Assembly (NCBI GenBank): GCA_039803745.1
Contig: JBDRZD010000016.1
Span: 1-31,314, forward strand
DNA: 31,314 nucleotides
Source: a candidate division WOR-3 bacterium
GTDB lineage: Bacteria > Hydrothermota > Hydrothermia > Hydrothermales > Hydrothermaceae
Direction: 5' to 3'
The translations under genes were made by a program, and so were the position numbers. Every line of letters starts with the position of its first letter. Positions within the stretch are counted from its first letter, which is position 1. Below the pieces are notes generated by a model, which had not been told where the DNA came from, did no database searches, and was given only the letters and a program-made list of their open reading frames with translations. This document shows, piece after piece, positions 1,781 through 26,817 of this stretch.

Positions 1781-2432
1781 ATTTATTTCCAAAAAATATT
1801 CTTTTACCTTTTGAAAGAATTAAAATTCTATCAGATAATTCCTCTGCAATTTCTTTTTCATGAGTGGAAAATATTATTGATCTTTTATTATTTTTAAATT
1901 CTAAAAATTTTTTAATTATTATTTTTTTTCCATTCTCATCAATTGCAGTGAATGGTTCATCAAGCACTAAAATTTCAGGTTCATTTAAAAACGCTCTTAT
2001 AAAACCTGCTTTTTGAATTTCTCCTCTTGAAAGATTTTTAACCTTCTCATTTAATTTATGTTCTATTAAAAATTCAGAGGAAATTTTTTCAATTTTTTTA
2101 AAGGGTTTTTCTATTCCGATTATTCTTGCAATTATATATAAATTTTCATAAAGGGTAAGTTCTGGATAAAAGAGAGGTTCATGAAATAAAAACCCAATTT
2201 TTGAATAAACATCCCTTTCTTTAAAGGGATCTTTACCAAATATTCTTATATTTCCTTTTAAAGGTTTTATAATTCCTGCAATTATCTTTATAAGTGTTGA
2301 TTTACCCGAACCATTTTCTCCAAGAATACACAATATTTCCCCTTTTCTTAAATAAAAAGAAACATCATCTAATGCTTTAATATTTCCAAAATTTTTTGAA
2401 ATGTTTTCTACTTCTATTATCTTCTCTTCCAT
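1752..2432 (-). CDS. ABC transporter ATP-binding protein (CcmA/DrrA-like)
   Basis: Walker A GENGSGKST, signature LSRGE, Walker B ILVLDEP, H-loop STH. Confidence 0.9.
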   Translation of the reverse strand: MEEKIIEVENISKNFGNIKALDDVSFYLRKGEILCILGENGSGKSTLIKIIAGIIKPLKGNIRIFGKDPFKERDVYSKIGFLFHEPLFYPELTLYENLYIIARIIGIEKPFKKIEKISSEFLIEHKLNEKVKNLSRGEIQKAGFIRAFLNEPEILVLDEPFTAIDENGKKIIIKKFLEFKNNKRSIIFSTHEKEIAEELSDRILILSKGKRIFFGNKFERKIFLSL

Positions 2433-3250
2433 TTAAAAATTAAGAAAATCCCTATAAATATTATAACAATTAAAACTGGCACTATATCTTTTAAATAATT
2501 TCCCCTTTTGATTTTTACCTTAAAATAAATCATTTCGTTTTCTTTTATCTCTTTTAATTTAAACCTTAAATATTTTTTACCTGCGGTTTCATAATTTTCT
2601 CCATCTTTTATACCCTCAATTTTTAGATTTTCTGATAAAAAAATTTCAAACAAATCTATTTTAAAAGGTAAAACTCTTTGATATTCAAGGTCTCCTTTTA
2701 TATAATACTCAAAAGATAAAATTTCTTCAGGAGGAGAAATGGGAAAGTGGTATAATAGTTTGTTTTTTAAAATTATAACTTCATTGGGAAAAAGTCCTGT
2801 AAAAGGTAAAAAATTTTCAATTCCTTCTGGAAGATTTATTTCAAAGGGTTTAAAAAATGCATAATTTTCATCATTTTTAAATGTTATAACTTCTATAACT
2901 GAAATTTTGTTATTTTCTTTTAAAATTGCCATATGGACTCTTGAAATTTTTACTATTTTTTCATCACTCTTTGTTTCCCATATATTAAAATTTAAAGAGG
3001 TGTCCTTATTTATAGAAATAATATTTCTAAAAATTACATCCTTATAAAACACTTTTACTAAATAAACTCCTTCTTTTAGATCAAATTTAAATTCACCATT
3101 TTTAGAAAACAGGGAATCCACAGGAGTTAATCTTTCTTGTGATATATTAAAAATAAAAATTTTTACATTCCCTTGATTTTTTTTGAAAGTCTGGTTTATA
3201 ACATTTCCTTTAATTAAATAAAAAGATAAAAAAAGAATTAATATCTTCAA
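2417..3250 (-). CDS. Hypothetical exported protein with beta-rich domains (N-terminal carboxypeptidase-regulatory-like) and a C-terminal TM anchor
   Basis: Short N-terminal hydrophobic leader, GEFKFDLKEGVYLVKV beta-sandwich-like pattern, and C-terminal IVPVLIVIIFIGIFLIF-KWKRR. Overlaps both neighbours. Confidence 0.6.
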   Translation of the reverse strand: MKILILFLSFYLIKGNVINQTFKKNQGNVKIFIFNISQERLTPVDSLFSKNGEFKFDLKEGVYLVKVFYKDVIFRNIISINKDTSLNFNIWETKSDEKIVKISRVHMAILKENNKISVIEVITFKNDENYAFFKPFEINLPEGIENFLPFTGLFPNEVIILKNKLLYHFPISPPEEILSFEYYIKGDLEYQRVLPFKIDLFEIFLSENLKIEGIKDGENYETAGKKYLRFKLKEIKENEMIYFKVKIKRGNYLKDIVPVLIVIIFIGIFLIFKWKRR

Positions 3251-6947: not shown

Positions 6948-8456
6948 ATGAAGAGAGTTTATATTCTTCTTTCAGGTAGCCTTATATTTTTTGTTGGAAT
7001 TTTAATAGGTTTTATAATGACTGCTAAACTTAAAATAGATACGAAGGCTTATGCAGAAAATCCGATAAAGGAAATCAGAAAAGAAGAGATAAAATTTGAT
7101 TCAAAAAATCCTTTTGCAAAGATAGCACAGGAAGTTATTCCTGGAGTCGTAAATATAAAGGCAACCAAAAAAGTGAAAAGAAGTATTGAGTTTTTCTTCC
7201 CCTTTGAAGACCCGTTCTTTAAAAAATTCTTTAGAGAATTTATACCGGAGCATCCCCAGGAATACGAGACAGAAGTTCTTGGTTCAGGATTCATATTTCA
7301 AAAAGAAAATGATACTTATTATCTTCTTACAAACTATCATGTGATAAAGGATGTTAATGATATAATAATAACTTTATGGGATAAAAGGGAATTTAAAGGG
7401 AAGGAAGTGAAAATAATTGGAAAAGATAAATTAACCGATGTTGCTGTTTTATCCGTTAAAACAAAGGAAGATTTAAAGGTTTTAAAATTGGGTGATTCAG
7501 ATAAAATAAATGTGGGTGATTGGGCAATAGCAGTTGGTAATCCTTTTGGTTTTAATGGAACTGTGACAGTTGGGGTGATTTCTGCGCTTGGCAGGTCACA
7601 CCTTCAATTTGGTGAGGAAGAAGGTCCTGTATTTCAGAATTTTATACAGACTGATGCAGCAATAAATCCCGGGAATTCCGGCGGTCCTCTTTTAAATATT
7701 GAAGGAGAAGTTATTGGAATAAATTCTGCAATATTTTCAACAATGGTTAGAGGGAATATAGGGATAGGTTTTGCAATTCCAATAAATACTGCAAAGAATG
7801 TTGCAAAGCAGTTGATTGAAAAAGGCGAGGTAAGAAGGGGTTATCTTGGTGTAAAGATTCAGGAAGTGGATGCTGACCTTGCAAAGGCATATGGACTTGA
7901 AAAACCAATTGGAGCACTTGTAACAGAAGTTGTTAAAGGGGAAGCAGCTGATAAGGCAGGTGTTAAAGAAGGAGAAATCATAATAAAAGTTAATGATGAA
8001 GAGGTTAAAAATGTTGAAGATTTAAGATTGAAGATAATAAGTCATTTCCCAGGGGAGGTTGTTAAACTTACATTAATAAATGAGGATGGCAAAAAAAGAG
8101 AGGTTAATGTAAAACTTGGTGAATTGAAAGAAGAAATGTTTACAAAAGGTGAAGAAGAAAGCAAAGAGGTTTCCGGATGGCTTGGAATCGAAGTGAAAGA
8201 ATTAACAAAAAATTTGAAGGAAGAGTATAATATAAAGGGTGAAAAGGGAGTTGTTATAGTGAATATTGATCCAGAAGGAAGCGCCTATAAAGCAGGTTTA
8301 AGGGAAGGAGATTTGATTTATAGGATAGGTAAAATTAATATAAATGATATTAAAGATTATGAAAGGGCAAGAAAACTTTATGAAAAGGAAAATAAACCAA
8401 TTCCATTCCATATTGAAAGGCAGGGAAACAAAAGGATTATAGCAATTTCGCCTTAA
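6948..8456 (+). CDS. degP: Do/DegQ family periplasmic serine endopeptidase (HtrA) with two PDZ domains
   Basis: N-terminal hydrophobic anchor or signal, LGSGF, TNYHV (His), TDVAV (Asp), QTDAAINPGNSGGPL (Ser), and the PDZ starts RGYLGV and GWLGI. Confidence 0.95.
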   Translation: MKRVYILLSGSLIFFVGILIGFIMTAKLKIDTKAYAENPIKEIRKEEIKFDSKNPFAKIAQEVIPGVVNIKATKKVKRSIEFFFPFEDPFFKKFFREFIPEHPQEYETEVLGSGFIFQKENDTYYLLTNYHVIKDVNDIIITLWDKREFKGKEVKIIGKDKLTDVAVLSVKTKEDLKVLKLGDSDKINVGDWAIAVGNPFGFNGTVTVGVISALGRSHLQFGEEEGPVFQNFIQTDAAINPGNSGGPLLNIEGEVIGINSAIFSTMVRGNIGIGFAIPINTAKNVAKQLIEKGEVRRGYLGVKIQEVDADLAKAYGLEKPIGALVTEVVKGEAADKAGVKEGEIIIKVNDEEVKNVEDLRLKIISHFPGEVVKLTLINEDGKKREVNVKLGELKEEMFTKGEEESKEVSGWLGIEVKELTKNLKEEYNIKGEKGVVIVNIDPEGSAYKAGLREGDLIYRIGKININDIKDYERARKLYEKENKPIPFHIERQGNKRIIAISP

Positions 8457-9175
8457 TGAAGAAATCTTCATTAAAAAAGCAAATTGAAGGATGGGTATGG
8501 GCTCTTGTTGTTGCTTTATTTTTGAGATACTTTGTGCTCCAGGCTTATAGAATTCCATCCGGTTCAATGGAAGATACACTCTTACCAGGAGACTTCCTTT
8601 TAGTATTTAAACCCATATATGGTATAGAAATTCCTTATACAGAAATAAAATTTTTCCAATTTTACAAACCAAAAAGAGGAGATATTGTTATTTTTAGATT
8701 TCCCCTTGATCCATCAAAGGATTTTGTTAAAAGATGCGTGGGTCTTCCCGGTGATACAATTGAAATAAAAGATAAAGTTTTGTATATAAATGGAAAAAAG
8801 GTTTTTGAGCCTTACGCAATTCATAAGGACGGGAAAATTATTCCTCCTTTAATAAATACAAAAGATGAGTTTTCAAAAAAAGAATTTCAAAGAATGTGGA
8901 TGGAAAGGGAACTTGTAGAAGAGCCAATGGCAAGGGATAATTTTGGTCCTGTTGTTGTTCCACCTAAGACATATTTTGTTCTTGGTGATAATAGAGATAA
9001 TTCTTCTGATTCAAGATTCTGGGGGCCTGTTCCTGAAAAATATTTAAAAGGTGTCCCATTAATTATATATTTTTCTTGGGATTCTGAATCAAATAGCATA
9101 TTTAAAAAAATCAGGATAGAAAGATTACTTCAAATTCCCCTTTTATGGAAAAAAGAATTTTATTCCGTCCCATAA
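8456..9175 (+). CDS. lepB: Signal peptidase I
   Basis: TM helix, IPSGSMEDTL (Ser), RGDIVIF, DFVKRCVGLPGD (Lys), GDNRDNSSDSRFWG; TAATG coupling to degP. Confidence 0.97.
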   Translation: MKKSSLKKQIEGWVWALVVALFLRYFVLQAYRIPSGSMEDTLLPGDFLLVFKPIYGIEIPYTEIKFFQFYKPKRGDIVIFRFPLDPSKDFVKRCVGLPGDTIEIKDKVLYINGKKVFEPYAIHKDGKIIPPLINTKDEFSKKEFQRMWMERELVEEPMARDNFGPVVVPPKTYFVLGDNRDNSSDSRFWGPVPEKYLKGVPLIIYFSWDSESNSIFKKIRIERLLQIPLLWKKEFYSVP

Positions 9176-10089
9176 AATGCAAAATATGTGAAGATAAGCC
9201 TGTAATATATTTAAGAGCATCAAATTTAGCATTATGCAGAGAGCATTTTATAGAAAGATTTGAAAAAATCACCTTTGAAATTATTAAAAAATTTAAAATG
9301 TTTGATAAAAATGAAAAGGTACTTGTTGCATGTTCTGGTGGAAAAGATTCTTCATCCTTAGCATATATTTTAAAAAAACTCAATTTTAATATTGAAGGAA
9401 TTTATATAAATCTTGGAATAGAAAAGGGTGACTATTCTAAAAAATCAGAAGAGTTTGTTAAAAAATTTTCTGAAAAATTTAATATTAAGATTCACATTTA
9501 TGACTTAAAAAAAGAAAAAGGTAGAGGATTAGATGATATTTTGAAAAATAAGAAAAGTTATAAACCCTGCTCTGTATGCGGAATTGTTAAAAGATATGTT
9601 ATGAATAAATTTGCCTTTGGAAAAGATTTTAATACAATTGCAACAGGTCACAATCTTGATGACGAAGTTTCCCGCCTTTTTGGAAACATAATATTCTGGC
9701 AGGAAGGATATTTGATTCATCAAAATCCTTTACTTGAAAGGGATGAAAAACTTTTGAAAAAGGTTAAACCCTTTGCTTTTTTTACTGAAAAGGAAACAGC
9801 CCTTTATGCAATTTTGAATGAGATTGATTATATAAGAGATGAATGTCCTTATTCAAAGGATGCAAAAACATTATTTTATAAAAGCCTTTTAAATAAAGTT
9901 GAAGAAAATTCACCTGGAGCAAAAATAAGATTCTATAAAGGATTTCTTGAAATTCAAAAGAAATACTTTAAAACTGTTCATAAAAAACATATAGAAATTA
10001 TTGGAGAAGAAAAGGAATGTAAAATATGTGGGATGCCAACTACAAGGGAAATATGCGGATTCTGCAGGATTTTTGAAAATGAAAGTTAG
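9145..10089 (+). CDS. ttuA: tRNA 2-thiolation sulfurtransferase, TtuA/Ncs6 (TIGR00269-type)
   Basis: N-terminal CxxC...CxxH Zn finger, PP-loop SGGKDS, Fe-S ligands CSVC and ECPY, GHNLDD, and a C-terminal CxxC...CxxC Zn finger. Zn fingers at both ends favour TtuA over TtcA. Confidence 0.88.
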   Translation: MEKRILFRPIKCKICEDKPVIYLRASNLALCREHFIERFEKITFEIIKKFKMFDKNEKVLVACSGGKDSSSLAYILKKLNFNIEGIYINLGIEKGDYSKKSEEFVKKFSEKFNIKIHIYDLKKEKGRGLDDILKNKKSYKPCSVCGIVKRYVMNKFAFGKDFNTIATGHNLDDEVSRLFGNIIFWQEGYLIHQNPLLERDEKLLKKVKPFAFFTEKETALYAILNEIDYIRDECPYSKDAKTLFYKSLLNKVEENSPGAKIRFYKGFLEIQKKYFKTVHKKHIEIIGEEKECKICGMPTTREICGFCRIFENES

Positions 10090-10831
10090 TATTGTGATAC
10101 CCGTTTATAATGAAAAGAAATACGTTGAAGAGGTCGTAAATGAAATTTTTGAAGTTAAAATAAAAAATAAAAAAATTTACATTGTTGATGATGGCTCGGA
10201 TGAAGAAACAAAAGAAATTCTTAAAAGATTAAAGGATGTAGAAATTATAACTCATAAAAAAAATATGGGATATGGTGCCGCAATAATTTCTGGTTTCAAA
10301 AAATCAATTTCTGAAAATTTTGATTATATAATAACAATTGATGCAGATAGACAGCATATTCCAAAAAGAATACCTGAATTTTTAAAATATATTAAATATT
10401 ATGATGTTGTTTCAGGTTCAAGATATATGAAAGGGGCAAAAGTTTTAACACCACCGCCAGAGGATAGAAAATATGTAAATTTTTTAATTCAAAGGGTTAT
10501 ATTTTATCTAACAGGACTAAAAATCACTGATGCATTTTGTGGTTTTAAGGCATATAGAAGAGAATTTATTGAGGGTATAAATTTTAAAGAAAAGGGCTAT
10601 GCCTTTCCATTAGAAGTCTGGTATTATGTTTATAAGAAGAAAGCAAGATTAAAGGAAATTCCCTGTGAACTTTTTTATCCTGAAAAAAGGAATTTTAGAG
10701 GAGAGATAATGGACAAAGAAAAGAGAATTTTATATTATAAAAGTGTTTTAGAGAAACTTTTTAAAAAGAATCTTGATGAATTATTTTTGAAAGCAAAAAG
10801 GGAGATAGAAGATGAATATTTTAGTGATTGA
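10079..10831 (+). CDS. Glycosyltransferase family 2 (DPM1-like fold, no obvious TM segment)
   Basis: Start moved to ATG 10079 (MKVSIVIPVYNE). Motifs: VDDGS, NMGYGAA, DxD motif IDADRQH, VSGSRY, TDAFCGFKAYR. Confidence 0.92.
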   Translation: MKVSIVIPVYNEKKYVEEVVNEIFEVKIKNKKIYIVDDGSDEETKEILKRLKDVEIITHKKNMGYGAAIISGFKKSISENFDYIITIDADRQHIPKRIPEFLKYIKYYDVVSGSRYMKGAKVLTPPPEDRKYVNFLIQRVIFYLTGLKITDAFCGFKAYRREFIEGINFKEKGYAFPLEVWYYVYKKKARLKEIPCELFYPEKRNFRGEIMDKEKRILYYKSVLEKLFKKNLDELFLKAKREIEDEYFSD

Positions 10832-11495
10832 TGCTCATCCTGATGATGCAGAACTTGGTCTTGGTGGAACAATATTTAAAATGGTTAAATCAGGCTATAA
10901 TGTTTATATTTTAGATTTAACAGATGGAGAGCCAACCCCTTTTGGAACAAAAGAAAAAAGAATTGAGGAGGCAAAAAAAGCAGCAGAAATTTTAGGAGTA
11001 AAAAAGAGGATAACCCTTGATTTACCGAATAGATACTTATTTGACACAAAAGAGGCAAGAATTAAAGTTGCAGAAATAATAAGGGAATATGAAATAGATT
11101 TTATATTTACCCACCAGGGAGATGATACTCATCCTGACCATATTGCTGCAAGAAAAATAACTGATGGGGCAAGATTTTATTCAAAATTAACAAAAACAGA
11201 TATGAAAGGAAATCCAAGGTATCCCAAAAGAATTTTTTATTATATTGCTTCCCATAAAAGAAAAGTATTTGAGCCAGATTTTATAATAGATATTACAGAG
11301 GAATTTGAAAAAAAGATTGAAGCAATAAAATGTTATGAATCGCAATTTTTATTAAATCCTGAAAGAAGAAATGTATTTGATCTTGTTGAATCAGTGAATA
11401 AATATTATGGATCAAGGATTGGAACAAAATATGGTGAAGGAATAATTATAGAGGAAAGTTTTGGGATAAAGGATATATCTTTTCTATTTAAATGA
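10812..11495 (+). CDS. bshB1: PIG-L/LmbE family N-acetylglucosaminyl deacetylase, BshB1-like
   Basis: AHPDDAELGLGG, DLTDGE, R..EA..AA.ILG, HPDH, PDFIIDIT, KIEAIKCYESQF, YGEG. Confidence 0.85.
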   Translation: MNILVIDAHPDDAELGLGGTIFKMVKSGYNVYILDLTDGEPTPFGTKEKRIEEAKKAAEILGVKKRITLDLPNRYLFDTKEARIKVAEIIREYEIDFIFTHQGDDTHPDHIAARKITDGARFYSKLTKTDMKGNPRYPKRIFYYIASHKRKVFEPDFIIDITEEFEKKIEAIKCYESQFLLNPERRNVFDLVESVNKYYGSRIGTKYGEGIIIEESFGIKDISFLFK

Positions 11496-12895
11496 TTCCT
11501 CAAAAAAATGATGAAATATATTTAAGTTCTTCTTTTAATGAAATAAATTCAAAAGCAAAAGAAAACAGGATTTTAAGAGAAAAATTTTTCAAAGTTTATA
11601 GTTTTTTTAAATTTAAAAATGAAAAAATTAAAATTGCTTCAGGGCATCAGCCTTATATTTTCCATCCAGGGATATGGGCAAAGATAATATTTTTAAATTT
11701 TTTTAACGATTTTGAAAAAATGTTTATAACAAATGACTCAGATGTTAAAGATGGAATTTTTATTGAAATTCCTTTTTTTGATGGGAAATGGAGAAAAATA
11801 AGGGAGTATATATATTTAAATTCAGAGAAAAAAACATTTGAAGAATACGATTTTTATAAGTTTAAAAGGGGAATTCTGTTTTTTTCAGAAAGGTTTAAAG
11901 AAATAGAGAAATTTATAAGAGAGGATGTAAAAGAAAAAATTTTAATTTTCATAAAAAATTTGAATGAATATGAAGATGTTGTTTCCTCAATTATTCTTAC
12001 AAGAAGAAATTTTGAAAGGGAGATAAAATATGGGGAAAAGATAGTTTCAGAAATTTGTAAAGAAGAAAACTTTTTAAAGTTCTTTCTTTATTTTTTTTAC
12101 GAAGGTGAAAAAATCTTTGATATTTATAATAAAAAACTTGAGGAATATAGAGTTATAAAAAATATAAAAAAAGAAGGTGAGCCTTTCCCCTTTCTTTTAA
12201 AATATAATGATTTTTATGAAATTCCCTTCTGGATCATTAAAGATGGAAGGAAAAGGATTTTTAAAAATAAAAATTCCTTATATATAGAAAATGAAAAGAT
12301 AAAGGAGTTATCCTTTGATTTTGAAAAAGATATTGAAAAGATTAGAAATTTAAAAATAAGACCGAAAGCATTAACACTTTCAATCTATCAAAGAATTTTT
12401 TTATCAGACCTTTTTGTTCATGGAATAGGTGGTGCAAGGTATGATGAATTCACTGAAAAATTTTTTGAAGATGTTTTCAATTTAAAGATACCGGAATTCA
12501 TATTTTTAACAGGAACATTTTACCTTTTTGAAGGAAATCCCTCTGATTTATCTTCCAAAATTTCTGAACTGATTCAAAAGAGAAATTTTTTAATTCATCA
12601 TCCTGAAAAATTTTTAAAAGATGATCCTCTTGTTAATGAGAAAATAAAATTAATTGAAGAGATAAGGAATCTTAAAAAAAATAAAAGGGAAATCGGTGAA
12701 AGAATAAAAAAGATAAATGAAAAATTAAAGGAAAAAATTGAAGGAATTTTGAAGGAGATTGAAAGGGAAATAAATGTTTTAATGGAAAAGGAAGAGGAAG
12801 AAAAAGTAAAATATTATAGGGAATATCCTTATTTTTATTTTGATTATGAAAGAATAAAAAAGGCAATTGAAAAAAGATATGATAATAGGAATTGA
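11492..12895 (+). CDS. Uncharacterised protein, probable divergent BshC-fold (Rossmann plus coiled-coil) ligase
   Basis: SGHQPYIFHPGIWAK resembles BshC TGQQ/TGHQ...GP...K; TNDSD resembles EDHD; PKALTLSIYQ...LFVHGIGGARY resembles PNVVTRPLxQ...FIxGPGExxY. A long K/E coiled coil follows. Lies directly after bshB1. Alignment is by eye only. Confidence 0.55.
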   Translation: MIPQKNDEIYLSSSFNEINSKAKENRILREKFFKVYSFFKFKNEKIKIASGHQPYIFHPGIWAKIIFLNFFNDFEKMFITNDSDVKDGIFIEIPFFDGKWRKIREYIYLNSEKKTFEEYDFYKFKRGILFFSERFKEIEKFIREDVKEKILIFIKNLNEYEDVVSSIILTRRNFEREIKYGEKIVSEICKEENFLKFFLYFFYEGEKIFDIYNKKLEEYRVIKNIKKEGEPFPFLLKYNDFYEIPFWIIKDGRKRIFKNKNSLYIENEKIKELSFDFEKDIEKIRNLKIRPKALTLSIYQRIFLSDLFVHGIGGARYDEFTEKFFEDVFNLKIPEFIFLTGTFYLFEGNPSDLSSKISELIQKRNFLIHHPEKFLKDDPLVNEKIKLIEEIRNLKKNKREIGERIKKINEKLKEKIEGILKEIEREINVLMEKEEEEKVKYYREYPYFYFDYERIKKAIEKRYDNRN

Positions 12896-13766
12896 TATTG
12901 GTGGGACATTTATAAAAATAGGATTTTTTAAAGATGGAGAAATAATAAAGAGAATAAAGATTGAAACACCAAAAAATGGAAAAGAGATTCTGGATAAAAT
13001 AATTGAAATAATTTTGAATTTAAAAGAAAAAATAGATGGAATTGGAATAGGGCTCCCCGGTATGATTTATAAAGGTAAATTAGTTCAGGCTCCAAATTTA
13101 AAAGGGCTTGAAGGATTTGAAGTTGAAAAATATTTAAAGGAAAGGATTTCTTTTGAATTTTATATTGATAACGATGCAAACTGTGCTGCCTTAGGTGAAA
13201 AATATTTTGGTCTTGCAAAAGATTTAAACGATTTTATTGTAATAACACTTGGAACAGGTGTAGGTGGTGGAATATTTTCAAATGGTAAATTATTAAGGGG
13301 GAAAGATGGGCTTGCAGGTGAAATAGGTCATATAACAATTTTCCCTGATGGAATAAGATGCAATTGTGGGAAAATAGGCTGCCTTGAAGTTTATGCATCA
13401 AAAGAAGGATTTAAAAAGATTTTAAGAGAAAATGTTGAACCTGAAGAGATTGCAAGAAGGGCAAAAGAAGGGATTGAGAAGTATAAAAAAGTTTTTGATT
13501 TGATGGGTTTTTCTCTTGGTATTGCCTGCGGTAATCTGGTAAACATTTTCAATCCAGAAGCAATAATATTTACAGGTGGAATATCAAAAAGTTATGATTT
13601 ATTTAAAGAGAGTTTTTTAAACAGTTTAAAAGAAAATGCATTTTCTCATCTTTTAAAAAATTTAAAGATAAAAGTATCAAGTATTTCAGAAGATTCAGGA
13701 GTTCTTGGTGCCATAGGTCTTTTTATTTATGAGAAAAGGGGAAAATCCTTACAAAGTTTCCTTTAA
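12879..13766 (+). CDS. ROK family sugar kinase (glucokinase/GlcNAc kinase-like)
   Basis: Start at ATG 12879 (MIIGIDIGGT). Motifs: GIGIGLPG, DNDANCAALGE, TLGTGVGGG, AGEIGH, and the Zn motif CNCGKIGCLE. No N-terminal HTH. Confidence 0.93.
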   Translation: MIIGIDIGGTFIKIGFFKDGEIIKRIKIETPKNGKEILDKIIEIILNLKEKIDGIGIGLPGMIYKGKLVQAPNLKGLEGFEVEKYLKERISFEFYIDNDANCAALGEKYFGLAKDLNDFIVITLGTGVGGGIFSNGKLLRGKDGLAGEIGHITIFPDGIRCNCGKIGCLEVYASKEGFKKILRENVEPEEIARRAKEGIEKYKKVFDLMGFSLGIACGNLVNIFNPEAIIFTGGISKSYDLFKESFLNSLKENAFSHLLKNLKIKVSSISEDSGVLGAIGLFIYEKRGKSLQSFL

Positions 13767-14516
13767 AAATTTTTTTAAAGGGATTGGCATCCTTTCCATT
13801 GAAATTATGTCTTTAAAGGGAATATTTAAATTTTCAACAAGAAATTTTATATAATAAAAGGATAAAAAATTTAAAAATTCACCTTCTATTTCTCTTAAAT
13901 TTTTTAACATCTCTTTAAAATTTTTCATCATGTACGAATATTCTCCCCTTTTGATAAATAAATTTCTATGAATTTTTATATAAGGAAAAACAAGATGTGA
14001 AAAATAAAAAGCAATCCCTTCTGAAAAAAATAATTCTTCAAAATTTTCTTCTTTATAAGGGAAAATCTTTCTTCTTTGCGCATGACCTATTTCATGGGCA
14101 ATTATTACTGGTAAATTTCTTATGTCATTTATTCTATCAATTGAAATTCCAATTAAAATTTCTTTATCAAAAACTGTTTTCCCATCAGGGCAGAAAAATC
14201 CAATATAAAAAATGATTTTACCTTCAATATCCATAATAATTTTTCCCTCTATTTCTTTTAAATACTCATTTAAATGGGGATAAAAATTTTTGTCAAAATC
14301 TAAAACATTTGAATAATGAGAAATTTTTGCTTTTTTAATTCTTTCATATATTTCTTCCTTTTTTAAAAACTCCCATCTTTTACAAAATTTTTTAAAATAA
14401 TACTCATATTTTTCAAAATACTCCTTTTTAATTTTTTCAAAATCCTCTTTTTCAAGAAATTCTAAAAATTCCTTATATAAGGGAATTATATTAAAATTTA
14501 ACTTCTGAGAAATCAC
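13749..14516 (-). CDS. Putative Zn-dependent protease (HExxH; DUF2268-like)
   Basis: IIAHEIGHAQR followed by FSEGIA (likely third ligand). The GTG start is uncertain. The 3' end overlaps the convergent ROK gene. Confidence 0.6.
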   Translation of the reverse strand: MISQKLNFNIIPLYKEFLEFLEKEDFEKIKKEYFEKYEYYFKKFCKRWEFLKKEEIYERIKKAKISHYSNVLDFDKNFYPHLNEYLKEIEGKIIMDIEGKIIFYIGFFCPDGKTVFDKEILIGISIDRINDIRNLPVIIAHEIGHAQRRKIFPYKEENFEELFFSEGIAFYFSHLVFPYIKIHRNLFIKRGEYSYMMKNFKEMLKNLREIEGEFLNFLSFYYIKFLVENLNIPFKDIISMERMPIPLKKFLKETL

Positions 14517-15459
14517 TTATATTTAATTCCCTTTCATTCCCTGAAATCTTTGCGTTATTACCTATAATTGAATCTTTTATATTTAAACTGTATATTTCTG
14601 TGAATTCACCAATTATTGAATCCTTAATTATTGAATTTTCTATTCTTGTATTTTTTCCAATTGAAACAAAAGGTCCTATTATTGAATCTTTTATAAAGGA
14701 ATTTTCTTCAATATAACATGGCTTTATTATAAGAGAATTTTCTATTTTACCAAGATTCTTTGTATTTTTTGTTAATATCTCTCTATGAGTTGAAAGTAAA
14801 AATTCCTTTGTTCCACAATCAAGCCATTTTTTAATATCTTCTTTTCTTATATAAATTCCTTTTTCAATAAGAAGTTCTATTGCATCTGTCAATTGATATT
14901 CTCCCTTTGTTTTTATATCCTTTTCAATAATCTCTTTTATCGCTTCCTTCAATTCAAAGGGTTTTTTAAAAAAATATATTCCTGCAATTGCTAAGTTTGA
15001 AATGTATTCTTTTGGTTTTTCAACAAGTTTTATTATTCTTTCTCCTTCACATAGAGCAACACCAAATCTTGATGGATCATTTACAGGATAAAGTCCTATA
15101 AAGTTTTCATTAAAATTTTTGAAATCCGATTCAATTATTGTGTCACCAAGCAGAATTAAAATTTCCTCATCTTTTTTAACTTTTTCAAGGGCAAGAAAAA
15201 TTGCATGGGCAAGACCAAGAGGTTCTTCCTGAATTACAAAATCAACAGGAATTTTATAATTCTCCTTAACACTTTTAAATACTTCTTCTCCATCCCTTGA
15301 TATTACAAGAATTATTTTTTCGATTGGAAGCGAAATTAAAGAATCAATTGCATGAAAGATCATTGGTTTTCCTGCAAATTTTAAAAGTGGTTTTGGTATT
15401 ATTAAAGTATGGGGTCTTAATCTTGTTCCCTTTCCAGCAGTTGGTAATATTAATATCAT
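14491..15459 (-). CDS. Sugar-phosphate nucleotidyltransferase with C-terminal left-handed beta-helix
   Basis: AGKGTRLRPHT...PKPLL, QEEPLGLAHA, LGDT, FGV, VEKP, GEYQLTDA, WLDCG, and C-terminal hexapeptide repeats (IKDSIIG). Confidence 0.9.
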   Translation of the reverse strand: MILILPTAGKGTRLRPHTLIIPKPLLKFAGKPMIFHAIDSLISLPIEKIILVISRDGEEVFKSVKENYKIPVDFVIQEEPLGLAHAIFLALEKVKKDEEILILLGDTIIESDFKNFNENFIGLYPVNDPSRFGVALCEGERIIKLVEKPKEYISNLAIAGIYFFKKPFELKEAIKEIIEKDIKTKGEYQLTDAIELLIEKGIYIRKEDIKKWLDCGTKEFLLSTHREILTKNTKNLGKIENSLIIKPCYIEENSFIKDSIIGPFVSIGKNTRIENSIIKDSIIGEFTEIYSLNIKDSIIGNNAKISGNERELNISDFSEVKF

Positions 15460-16451
15460 TTTTCTTTCATCCTTTCCTTTAATAAATCAATCCTTTTTAT
15501 CTCAAATGGGTCTTCTTTGTAAAACCTTGCAATAAAATAACTTACAAAATCTCCAAGAATTATCAAATCAAATATTCTTTCAAGATAATTTTTACCCTCA
15601 GGCTCAATAGTATTTATACCAACAAATACATCTTGAATGAGTTTTATTGTTTCTTCTATTCTTATTAAATTTCTTTTGTGGATATCAGGACCTTTTATAA
15701 AAATTGCCCATCCTGAATCAAGTAAATCCTCTGGATGGCAAAGGCCAACAATTTCATTATGATTCATTTCAGGAAGAATATCAATATGACAGAAAGTTTT
15801 ACCATTCTCATTTATCTGGGTTTTCCATCTTAATGCGCAAGGGAAATATTCATCAGGAGTATAAATAAATAAAAGTCTTTTATAAATTTTTGAAGCGATA
15901 TCAAAACCCTTTCCTTCTTCTTTTGAATAATCTTTTACTTTTTTTTCAATAAATTTTGAAGTTTCAATTAAATCCCTTTTATTAAATTTTAAATATTTTT
16001 CCAAAAATGAAAAAATAGAGGAAAATATCCATCCAAGTGCACATCTTGGTGGATAACCCTCTGGAAGATTTATAAAGGGGATGTTGAGTTCTTTTGCCCT
16101 TCTAAGTAAATTTCCACCTGATGTGACAACAAGGGATTTTTTATCCTTTAATTTTTCAAAATTTTCAATTGTTTCTTCTGTGTTTCCAGAATAACTTACA
16201 AATATGTATAAAAAATCTTCATTTATATATTCTTCAGGAACTTTATAATCTTTGAATACAAAAAATGGAATATTTGAAATTCTTTTAAGTAAATCTCCTG
16301 CAATACCTGAGCCACCCATTCCACATAAAACAATCCCTTTAATATCTCCGTAATCCTTTCTATTATAAACTTCTAAATTGAGCCCCTCTTTTATCTGTAA
16401 AGGCAATTCCTTTATAAAACTTTCCATATCTTTAAACTTATAAGGGCTCAT
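15456..16451 (-). CDS. Bifunctional phosphoglucose/phosphomannose isomerase (SIS family)
   Basis: CGMGGSGIAGD, SYSGNTEET, TSGG.L, PPRCA, RWKTQINENGK, PEMNHNEI. Confidence 0.93.
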   Translation of the reverse strand: MSPYKFKDMESFIKELPLQIKEGLNLEVYNRKDYGDIKGIVLCGMGGSGIAGDLLKRISNIPFFVFKDYKVPEEYINEDFLYIFVSYSGNTEETIENFEKLKDKKSLVVTSGGNLLRRAKELNIPFINLPEGYPPRCALGWIFSSIFSFLEKYLKFNKRDLIETSKFIEKKVKDYSKEEGKGFDIASKIYKRLLFIYTPDEYFPCALRWKTQINENGKTFCHIDILPEMNHNEIVGLCHPEDLLDSGWAIFIKGPDIHKRNLIRIEETIKLIQDVFVGINTIEPEGKNYLERIFDLIILGDFVSYFIARFYKEDPFEIKRIDLLKERMKEK

Positions 16452-20837: not shown

Positions 20838-21818
20838 TTACCAAAGTTTCATTTTTTCTCTTACATCTTCCAAAGTATTTTTAGCAACCTCTTGTGCCTT
20901 TTTATTTCCCACTTCAATGATTTCTATAATCCTTTTAATATTCTTTTTTAATTCTTTTTTCTTTTCCCTGAAAGGGGCAAGGAAAGAGACCATTTTGTTT
21001 ATGCAATTCTTTTTACACTCAACGCATCCCAGTTTTCCAGATTCACAACCTTCCCTTATTTCTGGATTTTCTTTTCCATCAATAAGAGAGTGGTAAGCAA
21101 AAACAACACATCCATCCGGGTGACCGGGATCACCAAGCTTTATTTTCATAGGATCAGTGTAAGCCTTCATGATTTTCCTCTCCAGTTCTTCAGGTTCTTC
21201 ATCAACAAATATTGTATTGTTCAAAGATTTGCTCATCCTTGCTTTACCATCTATTCCAGGAACTCTTGGGGTTTTTGTTAGAATAGGTTCAGGTAGAGGA
21301 AAGGTTTCACCGTAGAGATAGTTAAATCTTCTTGCAATTTCTCTTGTTATCTCAATATGGGGGAGCTGGTCTTCACCCACTGGAACAAGGTTTGCTTTAT
21401 AAATAAGAATATCAGAAGCTTGAAGAACTGGATAACCTAAGTGTCCATATGAAATGTTTTCTTCAAGTCCTAAATCTCTTACCTGTTCTTTGACGGTGGG
21501 GTTTCTCTCAAGCCTTGCAATAGAAATTAGCATTCCAAAAAGAAGATAAAGTTCTGCATGTTCTTTTACCTTGCTTTGAATAAATATAACCGATTTTTCA
21601 GGGTCTATTCCTATTGAAATCCAGTCACATACAGCTTCAATTATATACTCCTTAATTTTCTCGGTATTTTTATAATCCGTTGTTAAGACATGCCAATCAG
21701 CAACCTCATAAAAGCATTCATATTCTTTTTGAAGATTAACCCAGTTTATAAGAGCACCAAAATAATTTCCTATATGAATTTTACCTGTTGGTCTTAAGCC
21801 TGATAAAACCCTTTTCAT
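20838..21818 (-). CDS. trpS: Tryptophan--tRNA ligase
   Basis: SGLRPTGKIHIGNYFG, GYPVLQASDIL, VPVGEDQLPH, RMSKS. Confidence 0.98.
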   Translation of the reverse strand: MKRVLSGLRPTGKIHIGNYFGALINWVNLQKEYECFYEVADWHVLTTDYKNTEKIKEYIIEAVCDWISIGIDPEKSVIFIQSKVKEHAELYLLFGMLISIARLERNPTVKEQVRDLGLEENISYGHLGYPVLQASDILIYKANLVPVGEDQLPHIEITREIARRFNYLYGETFPLPEPILTKTPRVPGIDGKARMSKSLNNTIFVDEEPEELERKIMKAYTDPMKIKLGDPGHPDGCVVFAYHSLIDGKENPEIREGCESGKLGCVECKKNCINKMVSFLAPFREKKKELKKNIKRIIEIIEVGNKKAQEVAKNTLEDVREKMKLW

Positions 21819-22402
21819 ATTTCAAAATTAATTCCTAATCCAAAAGCAGAATTAAAAGTTGAAATAAATATCTCACTAAAAAGAGAAGTTTTTTGTGTAA
21901 ATTTAAATAAAAATCCCAGTTTCACTTCAACTCCTGGATAAACATCTGTTTCATTTTCCCCTTTTATTTCTTTTGATTCAAAGCCTATTCCCATTCCTCC
22001 TCCGCCATAAGGAATAATTTCTAATTTATCTTCAAGGGGTATTTTATAATCAATTAGAAAATCTGTCAAAAAGAAAAAGTGGAGTAATTTTTCTTCAAAA
22101 TAAAAACCGGTATGAGGAATTACGGAAATATTAAATGGGTAATCTTTTTTACTTTTAAAGACAAGGAAATTTAAGTTTCCATCAACACCAATCCCTGCTT
22201 TAGTATCCCCATTACTTTTAAATAAGAAAGCAGGTTTAATTCCGCCTTCTAAGTTTTCACTTAATCTTACTTCGAAGGAAGCACAAAATCCAAATCTCTC
22301 ACCAACAAGAAAATAGGCTCCAAATCCTGTGTTTTTAACAGGTTCACATACATTAAACCCCGGCACTATTTGATTTATTATTAACACTAAAAACATTTTC
22401 AT
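21815..22402 (-). CDS. Putative small outer-membrane beta-barrel protein
   Basis: Short leader, alternating aromatic/Gly strands, PYGGGGMG, and a final strand FGLGINFEI resembling a BAM beta-signal; SD AAGGAG. Confidence 0.65.
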   Translation of the reverse strand: MKMFLVLIINQIVPGFNVCEPVKNTGFGAYFLVGERFGFCASFEVRLSENLEGGIKPAFLFKSNGDTKAGIGVDGNLNFLVFKSKKDYPFNISVIPHTGFYFEEKLLHFFFLTDFLIDYKIPLEDKLEIIPYGGGGMGIGFESKEIKGENETDVYPGVEVKLGFLFKFTQKTSLFSEIFISTFNSAFGLGINFEI

Positions 22403-23637: not shown

Positions 23638-24489
23638 ATGAAAGCGAACAAGATTAAAATATTTTTATTTTTAGGAATGTTAATTATACTTTCTTCAATT
23701 TTTGGGAAAATTCTTGGAGGAAATATTTTAATGTTAATACTTTTTGCTTTAACCCTTTTTATAAGTGTATTCTATTATTATTTTTCTGATAAAATAATAT
23801 TTAAAATTTATAAGGTTAAACCCTTACCTTACCATAAATTCCCAGAAATTCATCATATTGTGAAAGAAGTTTCAGAGATTGCTGGAATAAAAAAACCGGA
23901 AATATATGTATTTCCCTCTCTTCATCCGAACATATTTTCAACAGGGAGAGCGCCCCAGAAGGGAGCAATTGTTTTTACCTATGGTATTTTAAAGAGATTA
24001 AATTTAAGGGAATTAAAAGCAGTTGTAGCCCACGAGATCTCCCATATAAAAAATATGGACAGTTTAATACAGATATTTTCTGCAGCATTTGTAAGTACAA
24101 TAACATCAATTGCAAATATTTTTAAATACCTTGTAACTTTTGGTATGGAAACAGAAAATAAAAGAGGCGATCTTTTATATTATTTTATACTTGGAATGTT
24201 TTCTCCTTTTGCTTCCTTATTGATACATCTTTTGATTTCAAAAAATAGAGAATATATTGTAGATGAAATTGCTTCAAAATTAACAAATGATCCTCTTGCG
24301 CTTGCAAGTGCTCTTGAAAAACTTGAATTTATGATAAGAAGATTCCCTCTTGAAATTAATCCTGCAACAAGCCATATATTTATTTTAAATCCTTTAAAAT
24401 CTGGAAATTTTATCTTCAACTTATTTAATACCCATCCTGATGTTGAAGAAAGAATTGAAAAACTTAAAAAACTTTCTTATGTGATATGA
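23638..24489 (+). CDS. htpX: M48 family zinc metalloprotease HtpX
   Basis: Two N-terminal TMs, YYYFSDKI, PNIFSTGR, VVAHEISHIKN.D, SKNREY.D, ALASALEKL, FNTHP..EERI. Confidence 0.93.
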   Translation: MKANKIKIFLFLGMLIILSSIFGKILGGNILMLILFALTLFISVFYYYFSDKIIFKIYKVKPLPYHKFPEIHHIVKEVSEIAGIKKPEIYVFPSLHPNIFSTGRAPQKGAIVFTYGILKRLNLRELKAVVAHEISHIKNMDSLIQIFSAAFVSTITSIANIFKYLVTFGMETENKRGDLLYYFILGMFSPFASLLIHLLISKNREYIVDEIASKLTNDPLALASALEKLEFMIRRFPLEINPATSHIFILNPLKSGNFIFNLFNTHPDVEERIEKLKKLSYVI

Positions 24490-25613
24490 AGATATTTTTA
24501 ATTATGCTTTTGAATCTTTCAAAAAGTATATACGGTGATTTCTTTTATTTTCCAAAGGAAAATAAGGATTCAATAGTAATATATTTAGAAGTTCCTGTTG
24601 ATTTTCTTGTTTTCAGTAAATATAAAAATAATTATTTCACTGAAATGGAAATAAATTTTGCTCTTTATGATAAAAATGGAGAAATAGTGAAAGGAGAAAG
24701 AATAAGTGAGAGAATAGAGGTTTTAAGACTTCCAAAAGACTCTATTATATCAAAGGAATTTGTGATTCTGGACACCCTGAAAGAGAAAAGGGCTTCGGTT
24801 AAAATAATAAATTTTGAAAAAGAATGGAAGATGGAAAGGAATTTTAAAAGGGAAGGTGATGTTATTCTTGGTGACATTGTTTTTCTTGACGATAGTAATA
24901 GAGTGATTCATAGGGTTGAGAAAAATAAAAGTATAAAAGTTTTTATGCAGATCTATTCAAAAAAAGAGATTGACGAAGATTTTAAAATTGAATTCTGGAG
25001 AAAAAATGATATCAAGAAATATTTTAAAGATCATTTAAAAGGTAAAGGAAATATTGAAATCAATAAAGAAATAGATTTAGAAAATCTTTCAGCAGGCGAT
25101 TATAAAGTAAGGGTTTATTTTGAAAAATCAAAAAAATATTCTGAAAAGATATTAAGTTTTTATGGTAGATATTTATTTGGAGATGAGAATTTTTATATGA
25201 TTGTTGATGCCCTTTATTATTTTGCGGATCAAAAAGATGTTGATTCTTTAAGACTTGCACCTTTTGATAGAAGAGAAAAAGCCTGGGAGAAATTCTGGTC
25301 AAAAAGGGATCCAAGCCCTTTAACACCCGAGAACGAATTTGAGGAGGAATTTTTAAGGAGATTCTATTACGCAAATGAAAGTTTTAGCACCCTCAATATA
25401 CCAGGTTATAAAACAGCAAGGGGAAGAATATATATCTTATATGGTGAACCTGACGAAATTGAGAGACACCCATTTGAAATAGATACTTATCCTTACGAAA
25501 TATGGTATTATTATAATAAAAGATTGAAATTTGTTTTTGTTGATAGAAAGGGGACAGGTGAATATGAACTTGTTCCTTCTGATTCTTATAGGTATATCTC
25601 CCCCTGGAGATAA
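24486..25613 (+). CDS. GWxTD domain-containing exported protein
   Basis: FWSKRDPSPLTPENEF...R..YANESF...GYKTARGRIYILYGEPDEI...YEIWYY...FVFVD..GTGEY. Confidence 0.85.
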   Translation: MKIFLIMLLNLSKSIYGDFFYFPKENKDSIVIYLEVPVDFLVFSKYKNNYFTEMEINFALYDKNGEIVKGERISERIEVLRLPKDSIISKEFVILDTLKEKRASVKIINFEKEWKMERNFKREGDVILGDIVFLDDSNRVIHRVEKNKSIKVFMQIYSKKEIDEDFKIEFWRKNDIKKYFKDHLKGKGNIEINKEIDLENLSAGDYKVRVYFEKSKKYSEKILSFYGRYLFGDENFYMIVDALYYFADQKDVDSLRLAPFDRREKAWEKFWSKRDPSPLTPENEFEEEFLRRFYYANESFSTLNIPGYKTARGRIYILYGEPDEIERHPFEIDTYPYEIWYYYNKRLKFVFVDRKGTGEYELVPSDSYRYISPWR

Positions 25614-26817
25614 AAATATCATTTGTGATTTAAGCGTTTTTTCCTTAAATGATTCAACTTCATATACAGAATTTATTTATTTTATATCCCCGGATTATTT
25701 AAAAATTCTTAAGAAAAATTATTTTGATTTAGAAATCAGCGTCTCCATTTTTGATAAGAACGAAAAAAAAGTAGTGTCTGATTCATGGAAAAAGAGGTAT
25801 AATTTCAAAAGTGAGGATTCTTATATTGCTGATATATTTACTTTTATATTAAAAAGCGGGGAGTATAAAATATCTATAAAACTCAAAACAAAAGAATTTG
25901 AATATAAAAAAGATACTGCTCTTTTAATTCCTTATTTTTCAAAGGCAAGTATCTCAGATATCCAGATATTTAAAGAAGTCTCAACTGATAAAAATAAATA
26001 TCCTTTTAAAAAATATAGCCTTTCTTATATTCCTTCTCCCTTTTTCTCTCATCCTGACTCATTTGCTTATTATTATTTTGAAATATATAGTCCCCCTCCT
26101 TTATTTTTTGTTTATCTTGAAATAAAAGACAGTTTGAATAATGTATGGCTTTCAAATATTGAGGAAAAAAAAGATGTTGAAAAAGCAAGTTTTATATACG
26201 GGAAAATTCCAATTTATGCACTTGAGGGAGGAAAGTATTCTTTTAAAATAAGTCTTTTAGACACTCTTAAAAATTTGTTAGCAGAAAAAGAAAAAAAATT
26301 TACTTATTTTTCTCTAAGATATTTGCATAAAAAAAGGGCTTTAGAAAAATATGAAGATTATCTTTCATTTATTGACTTTTTTGCGAGCAAGGAGGAGATG
26401 GAAGAATTTAAAAAGTTAGAGGGAAATGCAAGGATTACTTTTTTGAAAAAATTCTGGAGTAAGTTTGATCCTGATCCCTCAACACCTGTAAATGAATTTC
26501 TGGTCACATTTACAGCAAGAGTTGAATATGCTGATCAAAATTTTGGAACGCCCTTTAAAAAGGGAAGATATACTGATAGGGGGAGAATATATATAAAATA
26601 TGGACCACCTGACGAAGTTAGAAGAAATCCCTATCCTGTTGAGATTAGGGATTGGGAATCCTGGTTTTATAAATCGCCTTCAAAAAATCAATATATTTTT
26701 ATTGATTTAAAGGGTAATGGTGATTATATTTTAATTTATTCTTCAAATCCAGAAGAACCAGGAAGGTCAGATTGGAAAAACTACGTTCCACTGGAAGAGA
26801 TAGAAGTTTTGAGATAA
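25564..26817 (+). CDS. GWxTD domain-containing exported protein (second paralogue)
   Basis: Start moved to ATG 25564 (MNLFLLILIG; AGGTG upstream). FWSKFDPDPSTPVNEF...RVEYADQNF...GRYTDRGRIYIKYGPPDEV...WESWFY...YIFID..GNGDY. Confidence 0.85.
   Translation: MNLFLLILIGISPPGDKNIICDLSVFSLNDSTSYTEFIYFISPDYLKILKKNYFDLEISVSIFDKNEKKVVSDSWKKRYNFKSEDSYIADIFTFILKSGEYKISIKLKTKEFEYKKDTALLIPYFSKASISDIQIFKEVSTDKNKYPFKKYSLSYIPSPFFSHPDSFAYYYFEIYSPPPLFFVYLEIKDSLNNVWLSNIEEKKDVEKASFIYGKIPIYALEGGKYSFKISLLDTLKNLLAEKEKKFTYFSLRYLHKKRALEKYEDYLSFIDFFASKEEMEEFKKLEGNARITFLKKFWSKFDPDPSTPVNEFLVTFTARVEYADQNFGTPFKKGRYTDRGRIYIKYGPPDEVRRNPYPVEIRDWESWFYKSPSKNQYIFIDLKGNGDYILIYSSNPEEPGRSDWKNYVPLEEIEVLR

Follow-up and report, generated by a model that had tools for sequence, protein, structure and literature searches.

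A glycosyltransferase, BshB1-type deacetylase and BshC-fold protein trio as a candidate pathway to a glucosaminide other than bacillithiol

In a 31,314-nucleotide contig of a candidate division WOR-3 bacterium (JBDRZD010000016.1, forward strand; this whole stretch is referred to as the window), three overlapping genes encode a family 2 glycosyltransferase (GT2), a BshB1-type deacetylase and an unannotated protein of 467 residues with a predicted BshC fold, which we call the ligase. The source genome has a size of 1.67 Mb and is 93.5% complete, and the sequencing runs listed for the window are of hot-spring DNA. The three enzyme families are strictly linked and co-distributed, and the enzymes probably work together, as parts of one pathway, on a glucosaminide other than bacillithiol. 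With somewhat less confidence, but still as the more probable reading, we regard the trio as one biosynthetic cassette that would follow the three-step route of bacillithiol and mycothiol synthesis with different parts, leading to an N-aminoacyl-β-glucosaminide with an aglycone other than malate, which may be phosphorylated or a lipid. Bacillithiol itself is probably not what the trio makes, because the GT2 is of an inverting type, the deacetylase lacks the substrate contact Arg109, and the redox partners of bacillithiol are mostly missing from the genomes that carry the cassette.

In the proposed scheme, the inverting GT2 would transfer an N-acetylhexosamine (HexNAc), most likely N-acetylglucosamine (GlcNAc) from UDP-GlcNAc, to a non-malate and probably phosphate-bearing acceptor, which would yield a β-linked conjugate. 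The second protein, a zinc deacetylase of the BshB1 type, would free the 2-amino group of this presumed substrate (HexNAc-X to HexN-X), after which the ligase would acylate the amine with an amino acid, by analogy cysteine, in an ATP-dependent N-aminoacylation. We infer which sugar is donated, which acceptor receives it, which amino acid is added and what the product does, and the role that we prefer would be that of a cytoplasmic low-molecular-weight thiol or cofactor in lineages that have none of the pathways to glutathione, mycothiol and bacillithiol. Cysteine as the amino acid, together with a function of the product as a redox thiol, is put forward as tentative, falling a little short of probable.

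Three overlapping genes in the window

The original prediction had placed a GT2, a BshB1-type deacetylase and a 467-residue protein in three overlapping genes at 10079..12895, and the open reading frames (ORFs), the Pfam matches and the NCBIfam model TIGR04001 all agree with this. The GT2 gene (10079..10831, + strand) encodes 250 residues with a GT-A fold and without a transmembrane (TM) helix. Its ORF spans 10001/10079-10831; the ATG at 10079 gives the 250-residue protein with the N-terminus MKVSIVIPVYNE, and this start agrees with the N-termini of orthologues. The motifs PPPEDRKYVN, GYAFPLEVW and KRNFRG, which had been singled out in the GT2, are present in the translation. The second gene (10812..11495, + strand) encodes a PIG-L/LmbE-type zinc deacetylase of 227 residues and overlaps the GT2 gene by 20 nucleotides, and the ligase gene (11492..12895, + strand) overlaps the deacetylase gene by 4 nucleotides.

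The trio is conserved in order and co-distributed across phyla

To describe the conservation of the trio, we counted gene arrangements in the 80 best of at least 560 confirmed ligase loci in species-representative genomes, where ORFs were scored against the window proteins and lineages were taken from record titles. In 67 of these 80 loci, the ligase gene is closely preceded by a gene of the same GT2 subfamily in the same orientation, and in 41 of them the GT2, deacetylase and ligase genes follow each other in this order on the same strand. The 41 full-trio loci carry the labels Actinomycetota/Coriobacteriia, Armatimonadota and related metagenome-assembled genomes (MAGs), Nitrospinota, Nitrospirae, Atribacterota and Firmicutes. 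Chance falls far short of explaining an arrangement that keeps its order in 41 of the 80 loci and in several phyla. A GT2-ligase pair without an adjoining deacetylase gene was found in 26 loci, mostly of Planctomycetota, and the ligase gene stands alone in the remaining 13 (Brocadia and Scalindua types, one Verrucomicrobiota and others, one of them cut by a contig end). The pair is also carried by cultured Planctomycetota, for example Thalassoglobus polymorphus, in which the matching protein is named 'hypothetical protein'. The link to Planctomycetota that the original prediction mentioned is real, although the gene for the deacetylase is in most cases found at another site of these genomes.

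The predicted co-occurrence of the ligase with the GT2 subfamily and the deacetylase thus extends to adjoining genes, and it also holds where the genes are dispersed. Each of five genomes with a solitary ligase gene contains exactly one GT2 orthologue elsewhere (290-322 bits), the next paralogue scoring at most 137 bits. Likewise, the BshB1 model finds a match over its cut-off in 33 of 40 carrier genomes, and at E≤1e-10 in 39 of the 40. For specificity, 101 genomes were evenly drawn from the phylum of one Firmicutes-labelled carrier (G033). Three of these genomes contain the ligase family, and precisely these three also contain the GT2 subfamily (E≤1e-45), which is missing from the other 98. 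BshC is present in 26 genomes of this sample, none of which is among the 3 ligase carriers; taken alone, this non-overlap is not significant because there are only three carriers.

Canonical thiol pathways in the carrier genomes

The trio had been proposed to be independent of BshA and to occur in genomes without canonical bshA and bshC, and neither gene was found over its cut-off in the window genome or in any of the 40 other carriers. All the computational checks suggested along with the original prediction turned out in its favour. In the window genome, there was no BshC match (TIGR03998, E≤1), no GT4 near the BshA cut-off (TIGR03999; best match 111 bits against 273.7) and no GshA match, and the MshC model gave a single match that is below cut-off and at the level of CysRS. 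Among the 40 other carrier genomes, canonical BshC (TIGR03998, E≤0.001) and BshA over cut-off were found in none, and MshC over cut-off was found in none of the 5 carriers searched for it. BshC was likewise found in none of 94 genomes from the phylum of the genome G028. Matches to the Pfam family GSH-S_ATP in 4 of 5 carriers were set aside as uninformative, since the same model matches control genomes that do not make glutathione.

YpdA stands for the bacillithiol disulfide reductase family. Two of the three Firmicutes-labelled carriers have a match over the cut-off: G033 (locus L104) and G216 (locus L125) combine the cassette with a YpdA-type gene of about 410 bits and have no BshC. These two genomes are natural candidates for asking whether a YpdA-type reductase serves the cassette product. 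In two Scalindua-type genomes (G023 and G037, loci L106 and L107), an open frame of 804 residues starts with a YpdA-like domain (about 161 bits, 265 residues) and may represent a fusion.

A predicted BshC fold in an unannotated protein family

The 467-residue protein matches no Pfam family and no NCBIfam family, and no BshC model was found even at E≤10; the Pfam matches that appear at E≤10 were rejected as chance matches to a coiled coil. In an AlphaFold2 model built with 23 homologues (predicted local distance difference test, pLDDT, 91.6; pTM 0.85), the protein nevertheless resembles BshC. The top match of the model in a Foldseek search of the PDB was B. subtilis BshC (4wbd, E 1.4e-10), and VIA-align superposed the model on chain 4wbd_A with a Z-score of 24.1 and a root-mean-square deviation of 5.7 over 423 residues (model residues 12-463, chain residues 19-531), a match that extends to the C-terminal coiled coil. 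Next in rank was class I LysRS with a Z-score of 18.8, while all other chains, MshC among them at 9.6, scored 10.0 or less. The original description of this protein as BshC-like is thus borne out by the fold and by a weak collinear profile match, but not by any Pfam or NCBIfam match to BshC.

This profile match was obtained with hhalign, in which the profile of the ligase family aligned with that of 13 canonical BshC sequences, drawn from BshC-positive genomes, at an E-value of 1.5e-4 and a probability of 52% over 397 collinear columns, which is weak. Collinear motifs were found at four positions (GHQP/GQQA, DxD/EDHD, RP/RP and HGxGGxxYD/GPGExxY, ligase family first), and the signatures GQQxGxxTGPLYxxxK, EDHD and GPGExxY, invariant in the 13 BshC sequences, are replaced in the ligase family by GHQPxxFHPGxWxK, DxD and HGxGGxxYD. 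A search of PDB sequences with the ligase-family profile returned coiled-coil noise and did not find BshC, and the homology to BshC therefore rests on the fold and on the weak hhalign match. As a lead, the nearest named clusters in a protein-language-model atlas were archaeal clusters bearing PF10079 (BshC), with scores of 0.86 and 0.80. The ligase family itself is large, with 2197 cluster representatives at E≤1e-3 in a library clustered at 50%, and every named match is a 'hypothetical protein'. Judged by the model, the ligase belongs to the BshC structural superfamily as a divergent family of its own, with a Rossmann core like that of class I aminoacyl-tRNA synthetases (aaRS) and a C-terminal coiled coil.

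A shorter form of the ligase occurs in two relatives from the same taxonomic order as the window genome (L161 2433-3323, - strand; L162 3961-4989, + strand). Here, the protein has only about 375 residues, aligns to window residues up to 345 and lacks the C-terminal coiled coil, while the GT2 and deacetylase genes are intact and syntenic within a shared HtrA-LepB-TtuA-GT2-deacetylase-ligase string. A seemingly decayed ligase copy in a related genome (G268) was rejected, as its four TAA codons result from the profile running past the stop codon of this shorter form.

A BshB1-type deacetylase without Arg109

The deacetylase matches Pfam PIG-L (3.5e-27) and scores 204 bits with the NCBIfam BshB1 model TIGR04001, the equivalog cut-off of which is 182.5. 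Its sequence matches 2ixd (3e-35) and B. subtilis BshB1 (6p2t, 2e-33). Residues H9, D11, D12, R50, H107, D109 and H110 align with H12, D14, D15, R53, H110, D112 and H113 of BshB, so the zinc ligands, the Asp base and the equivalent of Arg53 are all kept (HxDD...H site). The position of BshB Arg109 is occupied by T106. In a survey of trio-type deacetylase genes, which gave 54 rows and, after removal of 8 duplicate fetches, 46 distinct genes, this position is Ala in 44, Thr in one (that of the window) and Ser in one, and it is basic in none. Canonical BshB1 proteins were collected from 26 BshC-positive genomes, and one locus without an exact motif match reduced the set to 25, of which 20 have Arg at this position, 2 have Lys, 2 have Asp and one has Val. 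The scores with the BshB1 model also differ, with 150-217 bits for trio-type deacetylases versus 230-333 bits in BshC-positive genomes.

According to the part of a review that treats BshB, Arg109 contacts GlcNAc-malate and its mutation lowers BshB activity (PMC4101496). The absence of this residue suggests that the conjugate carries something other than malate, and the prediction of a non-malate acceptor thereby gains support at the level of sequence. In carrier genomes, the annotation 'BshB1' is no evidence for bacillithiol.

In one Thalassoglobus MAG (L100 1480-3221, + strand), an unlinked BshB1-like gene is followed by dapB. In B. subtilis, bshB1 lies downstream of dapB, and the order in L100 may be an old synteny remnant. 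The passage of a review on bacillithiol genes places B. subtilis bshB1 in an operon with mgsA and bshA (PMC5790435).

A GT2 subfamily related to polyprenyl-phosphate transferases

The GT2 matches Pfam PF00535 (Glycos_transf_2, 7e-33). Its best NCBIfam match is PpgS with 79.5 bits against a cut-off of 370; all NCBIfam equivalogs are far below cut-off, and the top NCBIfam rows are all polyprenyl-phosphate transferases. In the predicted structure (pLDDT 95.1), the chain ends after two short helices without a TM helix. The best fold matches of this model were P. furiosus DPMS (5mlz, Z 23.9, 32% identity over 225 residues) and ArnC (Z 20.3, 29%), for which profile E-values of 2e-24 and 1.6e-21, respectively, were obtained; DPMS, ArnC and GtrB are the nearest matches in both sequence and fold.

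Residues that are invariant in 35 GT2 orthologues include D88, D90, Q92, H93, R115, R130, N134, D151 and K157. These were mapped onto DPMS with an HMMER alignment to 5mlz and the DPMS paper (PMC5526996). The stretch D88-A-D90-R-Q92-H93 aligns with the metal and donor motif 89-DADLQH-94, giving the DxDxQH metal site that the GT2 shares with DPMS, and the invariant R115 and R130 align with R117 and R131, the ligands of the phosphate of dolichyl phosphate (Dol-P). By this alignment, two of the three acceptor-phosphate ligands would be shared; K178, which contacts the phosphoester, aligns with A175. The invariant N134 takes the place of S135 of DPMS, and a variable polar residue that of L218. The GT2 model covers both interface-helix regions of DPMS (DPMS residues 1-235). 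By these alignments, the GT2 represents a distinct, highly conserved subfamily in the DPMS/ArnC/GtrB clade. Because the phosphate-binding arginines of DPMS are kept, the acceptor probably bears a phosphate, and the enzyme, which has no conserved small membrane gene adjoining it across the homologous loci, may bind the membrane peripherally or be soluble.

The relation to DPMS also bears on the stereochemistry of the product. BshA retains the α configuration, but the DPMS-type relatives of the cassette GT2 invert configuration, for which reason its product would be β-linked. The first step thus differs from that of the bacillithiol pathway, which starts with a retaining GT-B enzyme, not with an inverting GT-A enzyme of family GT2. 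BshA belongs to family GT4 (PMC5790435).

Resemblance to known thiol pathways

The cassette shares with BshA/BshB1/BshC the proposed order of glycosylation, deacetylation and ligation, a deacetylase that passes the BshB1 model, and a BshC fold that includes the coiled coil. Besides the type of glycosyltransferase, it differs in a ligase that fails every BshC sequence model and has other motifs, in the lack of Arg109 in the deacetylase, and in that YtxJ, bacilliredoxin and YpdA are mostly absent from carriers. A similar three-step logic, a PIG-L-family deacetylase and a ligase with a class I aaRS fold are found in mycothiol synthesis by MshA/MshB/MshC/MshD; however, MshA is a GT4 enzyme and MshC is a CysRS paralogue, which matches the cassette ligase at a Z-score of only 9.6.

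Genomic context

Beyond the trio itself, the neighbouring genes are lineage-specific. The survey of neighbours used longest-ORF gene calls, which are crude and pick up antisense ORFs in GC-rich loci, and recurrent clusters were annotated. Actinobacterial loci have an OsmC-family gene directly upstream of the trio (10 loci), and PlsY, a diacylglycerol-kinase-like gene and EF-G downstream of it. In about 12 Armatimonadota-like loci, genes of haem synthesis lie upstream, where ferrochelatase is accompanied by a class-III aminotransferase and a MerR regulator, and CcmA/B/C/E/F lie downstream. Both OsmC and the maturation of cytochrome c have a connection to thiol redox chemistry, but this is weak evidence because each context is confined to one lineage.

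In 6 loci, 5 from planctomycetes and one with a Spirochaetaceae label (L063), a protein of 311-503 residues with a weak GNAT match (Acetyltransf_9, E 5.5e-4) is encoded on the same strand 3' of the ligase gene, for example at L086 3794-5230 (+ strand). This protein may resemble MshD and could N-acylate the cassette product as MshD does in mycothiol synthesis.

In the window, the trio belongs to a tight same-strand string of genes at 6948-13766, in the order HtrA-LepB-TtuA-GT2-deacetylase-ligase-ROK kinase. The gene for a TtuA-type tRNA 2-thiolase (9145..10089, + strand; NCBIfam NF049949, 9e-96) overlaps the start of the GT2 gene by 11 nucleotides, and the ORF of the ROK-family sugar kinase (12867..13766, + strand; Pfam ROK, 1.9e-69), taken at its listed TTG start, overlaps the end of the ligase gene by 29 nucleotides. 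Both linkages are lineage-specific, as the order TtuA-GT2-deacetylase-ligase recurs outside the window in L009, L161 and L162 only, and apart from the window, L009 is the sole locus in which the ROK kinase adjoins the trio (1 of the 80 loci). On the opposite strand beside the trio (13749-16451, - strand) lie genes for a sugar-1-phosphate nucleotidyltransferase of the GlmU/RmlA-long type, which has a left-handed β-helix tail and reaches no equivalog cut-off, a bifunctional PGI/PMI, and a protein of 255 residues with a weak match to the Zn-protease family DUF2268. Together with the ROK kinase gene, these genes may form a sugar-nucleotide supply block for the cassette in this lineage.

The remainder of the window contains housekeeping genes, including those for ValRS, MetK, TrpRS, MurJ, ThyX and PlsX. 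Two tandem overlapping genes for GWxTD-domain proteins of 375 and 428 residues (24486-26817, + strand) lie between the gene for an M48 peptidase, which precedes them, and that for MurJ, which follows directly. Two ORFs match no Pfam family at E≤1e-5, namely one of 277 residues between an ABC ATPase and ThyX (2417-3250, - strand) and one of 195 residues adjoining TrpRS (21815-22402, - strand).

Alternative explanations

Several observations weigh against the view that the trio makes a soluble, thiol-bearing glucosaminide. All nearest relatives of the GT2 use polyprenyl phosphate, and with 32% identity to DPMS the actual acceptor may be a lipid phosphate. A DPMS without its TM domain is nonetheless directed to membranes and active on Dol-P, as described in the relevant part of PMC5526996, and for this reason the conjugate could be lipid-linked instead of soluble. 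The BshC homology of the ligase is weak at the sequence level, with the signature motifs replaced, and the term 'cysteine ligase' extrapolates from BshC, the reaction of which has never been reconstituted in vitro according to the passage on this enzyme in PMC5790435; of the three steps, the final one thus carries the most uncertainty. The amino acid added, the product and the role as a thiol are what we infer for the trio. Known partner genes are not co-distributed with the cassette, as none of 41 genomes has YtxJ, none of 5 has bacilliredoxin and a single one of 41 has YpdA over cut-off, and these genes consequently lend no support to a thiol role. Moreover, the cassette is patchy, the ligase being present in 3 of 81 sampled genomes of the window's phylum (that of the window and two of the same order), and the OsmC and Ccm contexts count as approximately two independent events.

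If the conjugate is lipid-linked, the GT2 would be a GlcNAc-phosphoryl-polyprenol synthase, presumably analogous to GacI, AglK and PpgS, the deacetylase would convert its product to GlcN-phosphoryl-polyprenol, and the BshC-fold enzyme would N-aminoacylate the latter. After flipping, the modified sugar would be transferred to a polymer or lipid of the envelope, following the scheme of ArnC/ArnD/ArnT; alternatively, the pathway would end with the lipid conjugate itself. This is unlikely, yet it deserves serious consideration, since the matches of the GT2 in structure, sequence and NCBIfam point to such transferases, the residues aligned with R117, R131 and S135 are invariant, the model spans both interface-helix regions, and even an enzyme without a TM domain can work on Dol-P. 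The succession of a GT2 and a deacylase is also shared with the ArnC-ArnD-ArnT route, although the deacylases of such routes are of the NodB or YdjC type and that of the cassette is of the PIG-L type. PIG-L itself acts on lipid-linked GlcNAc, as stated in the corresponding part of PMC4101496. Unlike the systems of DPMS, ArnC, GtrB and PpgS, however, the cassette has no TM domain and includes an aaRS-like ligase, which is missing from those systems. No GT-C transferase or flippase was found among the annotated recurrent neighbour clusters (rare neighbours lie outside this annotation), and no conserved small membrane partner adjoins the GT2. Its genes are located amid housekeeping genes, and its carriers belong to both diderm and monoderm phyla with unrelated envelopes. 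Furthermore, K178 and several isoprene-contact positions of DPMS, including L218, are not kept in the GT2.

It is very improbable that the cassette makes ordinary bacillithiol (Cys-GlcN-malate), with the GT2 as a non-orthologous replacement of BshA and the 467-residue protein as a fast-evolving BshC. The passing score of the deacetylase with the BshB1 equivalog model would fit this explanation, as would the YpdA-type reductases over cut-off in G033 and G216, which have no BshC. Against it stand the inverting nature of DPMS-type GT2 enzymes, the lack of Arg109 in all 46 trio-type deacetylases, the lower range of their BshB1-model scores and the counts for YtxJ, YpdA and bacilliredoxin given above. 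Hardly any weight attaches to modification of a macromolecule, in which the aaRS-like protein would behave like GluQRS and act on a protein or on a tRNA base that is glycosylated, while the GT2 and deacetylase would prepare the sugar-amine there. Class I LysRS is the second-best fold match of the ligase, and some lineages have tRNA-modification genes close to the trio, namely TtuA in the case of the window, TGT at 5 loci and, at 13 loci, a TRAM methyltransferase, but these contexts vary by lineage and are non-adjacent in most loci. In addition, the ligase has no anticodon-binding domain, as its C-terminus is a BshC-type coiled coil, and the closest relatives of the GT2 use phosphate acceptors, not nucleobases or proteins.

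Implications

In a full-text literature search, with subscription journals and supplements outside its scope, no description of a GT2-based cassette or of this ligase family was found. For archaeal thiols, the relevant section of a 2020 review mentions only InterPro matches to BshA and BshC in Asgard archaea (PMC7278568).

In the most far-reaching form of the proposed thiol pathway, the cassette would make a widely distributed new low-molecular-weight thiol, a cysteinyl-β-glucosaminide on a phosphorylated or otherwise non-malate aglycone, that serves as the missing cytoplasmic redox buffer of these lineages. We regard this as possible, albeit rather doubtful. If it is true, the thiol would be the redox buffer of Planctomycetota (including the anammox bacteria), Verrucomicrobiota, Armatimonadota-like phyla, Coriobacteriia-type Actinomycetota, Nitrospinota, Atribacterota and the hot-spring lineage of the window. 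Planctomycetes, Verrucomicrobia and Spirochaetes are named in the pertinent passage of Hiras et al. 2018 (PMC6282198) as having no documented or predicted low-molecular-weight thiol, and MAGs with these three labels are among the cassette carriers. For the lineages named there, the cassette is a concrete and testable candidate to fill this gap.

The ligase may also be informative for BshC itself. If the proposed chemistry is true, the ligase would be the more synthetase-like enzyme, with a conserved His-x-Gly after the first strand, and could reveal the chemistry of the BshC superfamily. As a divergent sister family with different active-site residues, it offers a second route into the problem of BshC biochemistry.

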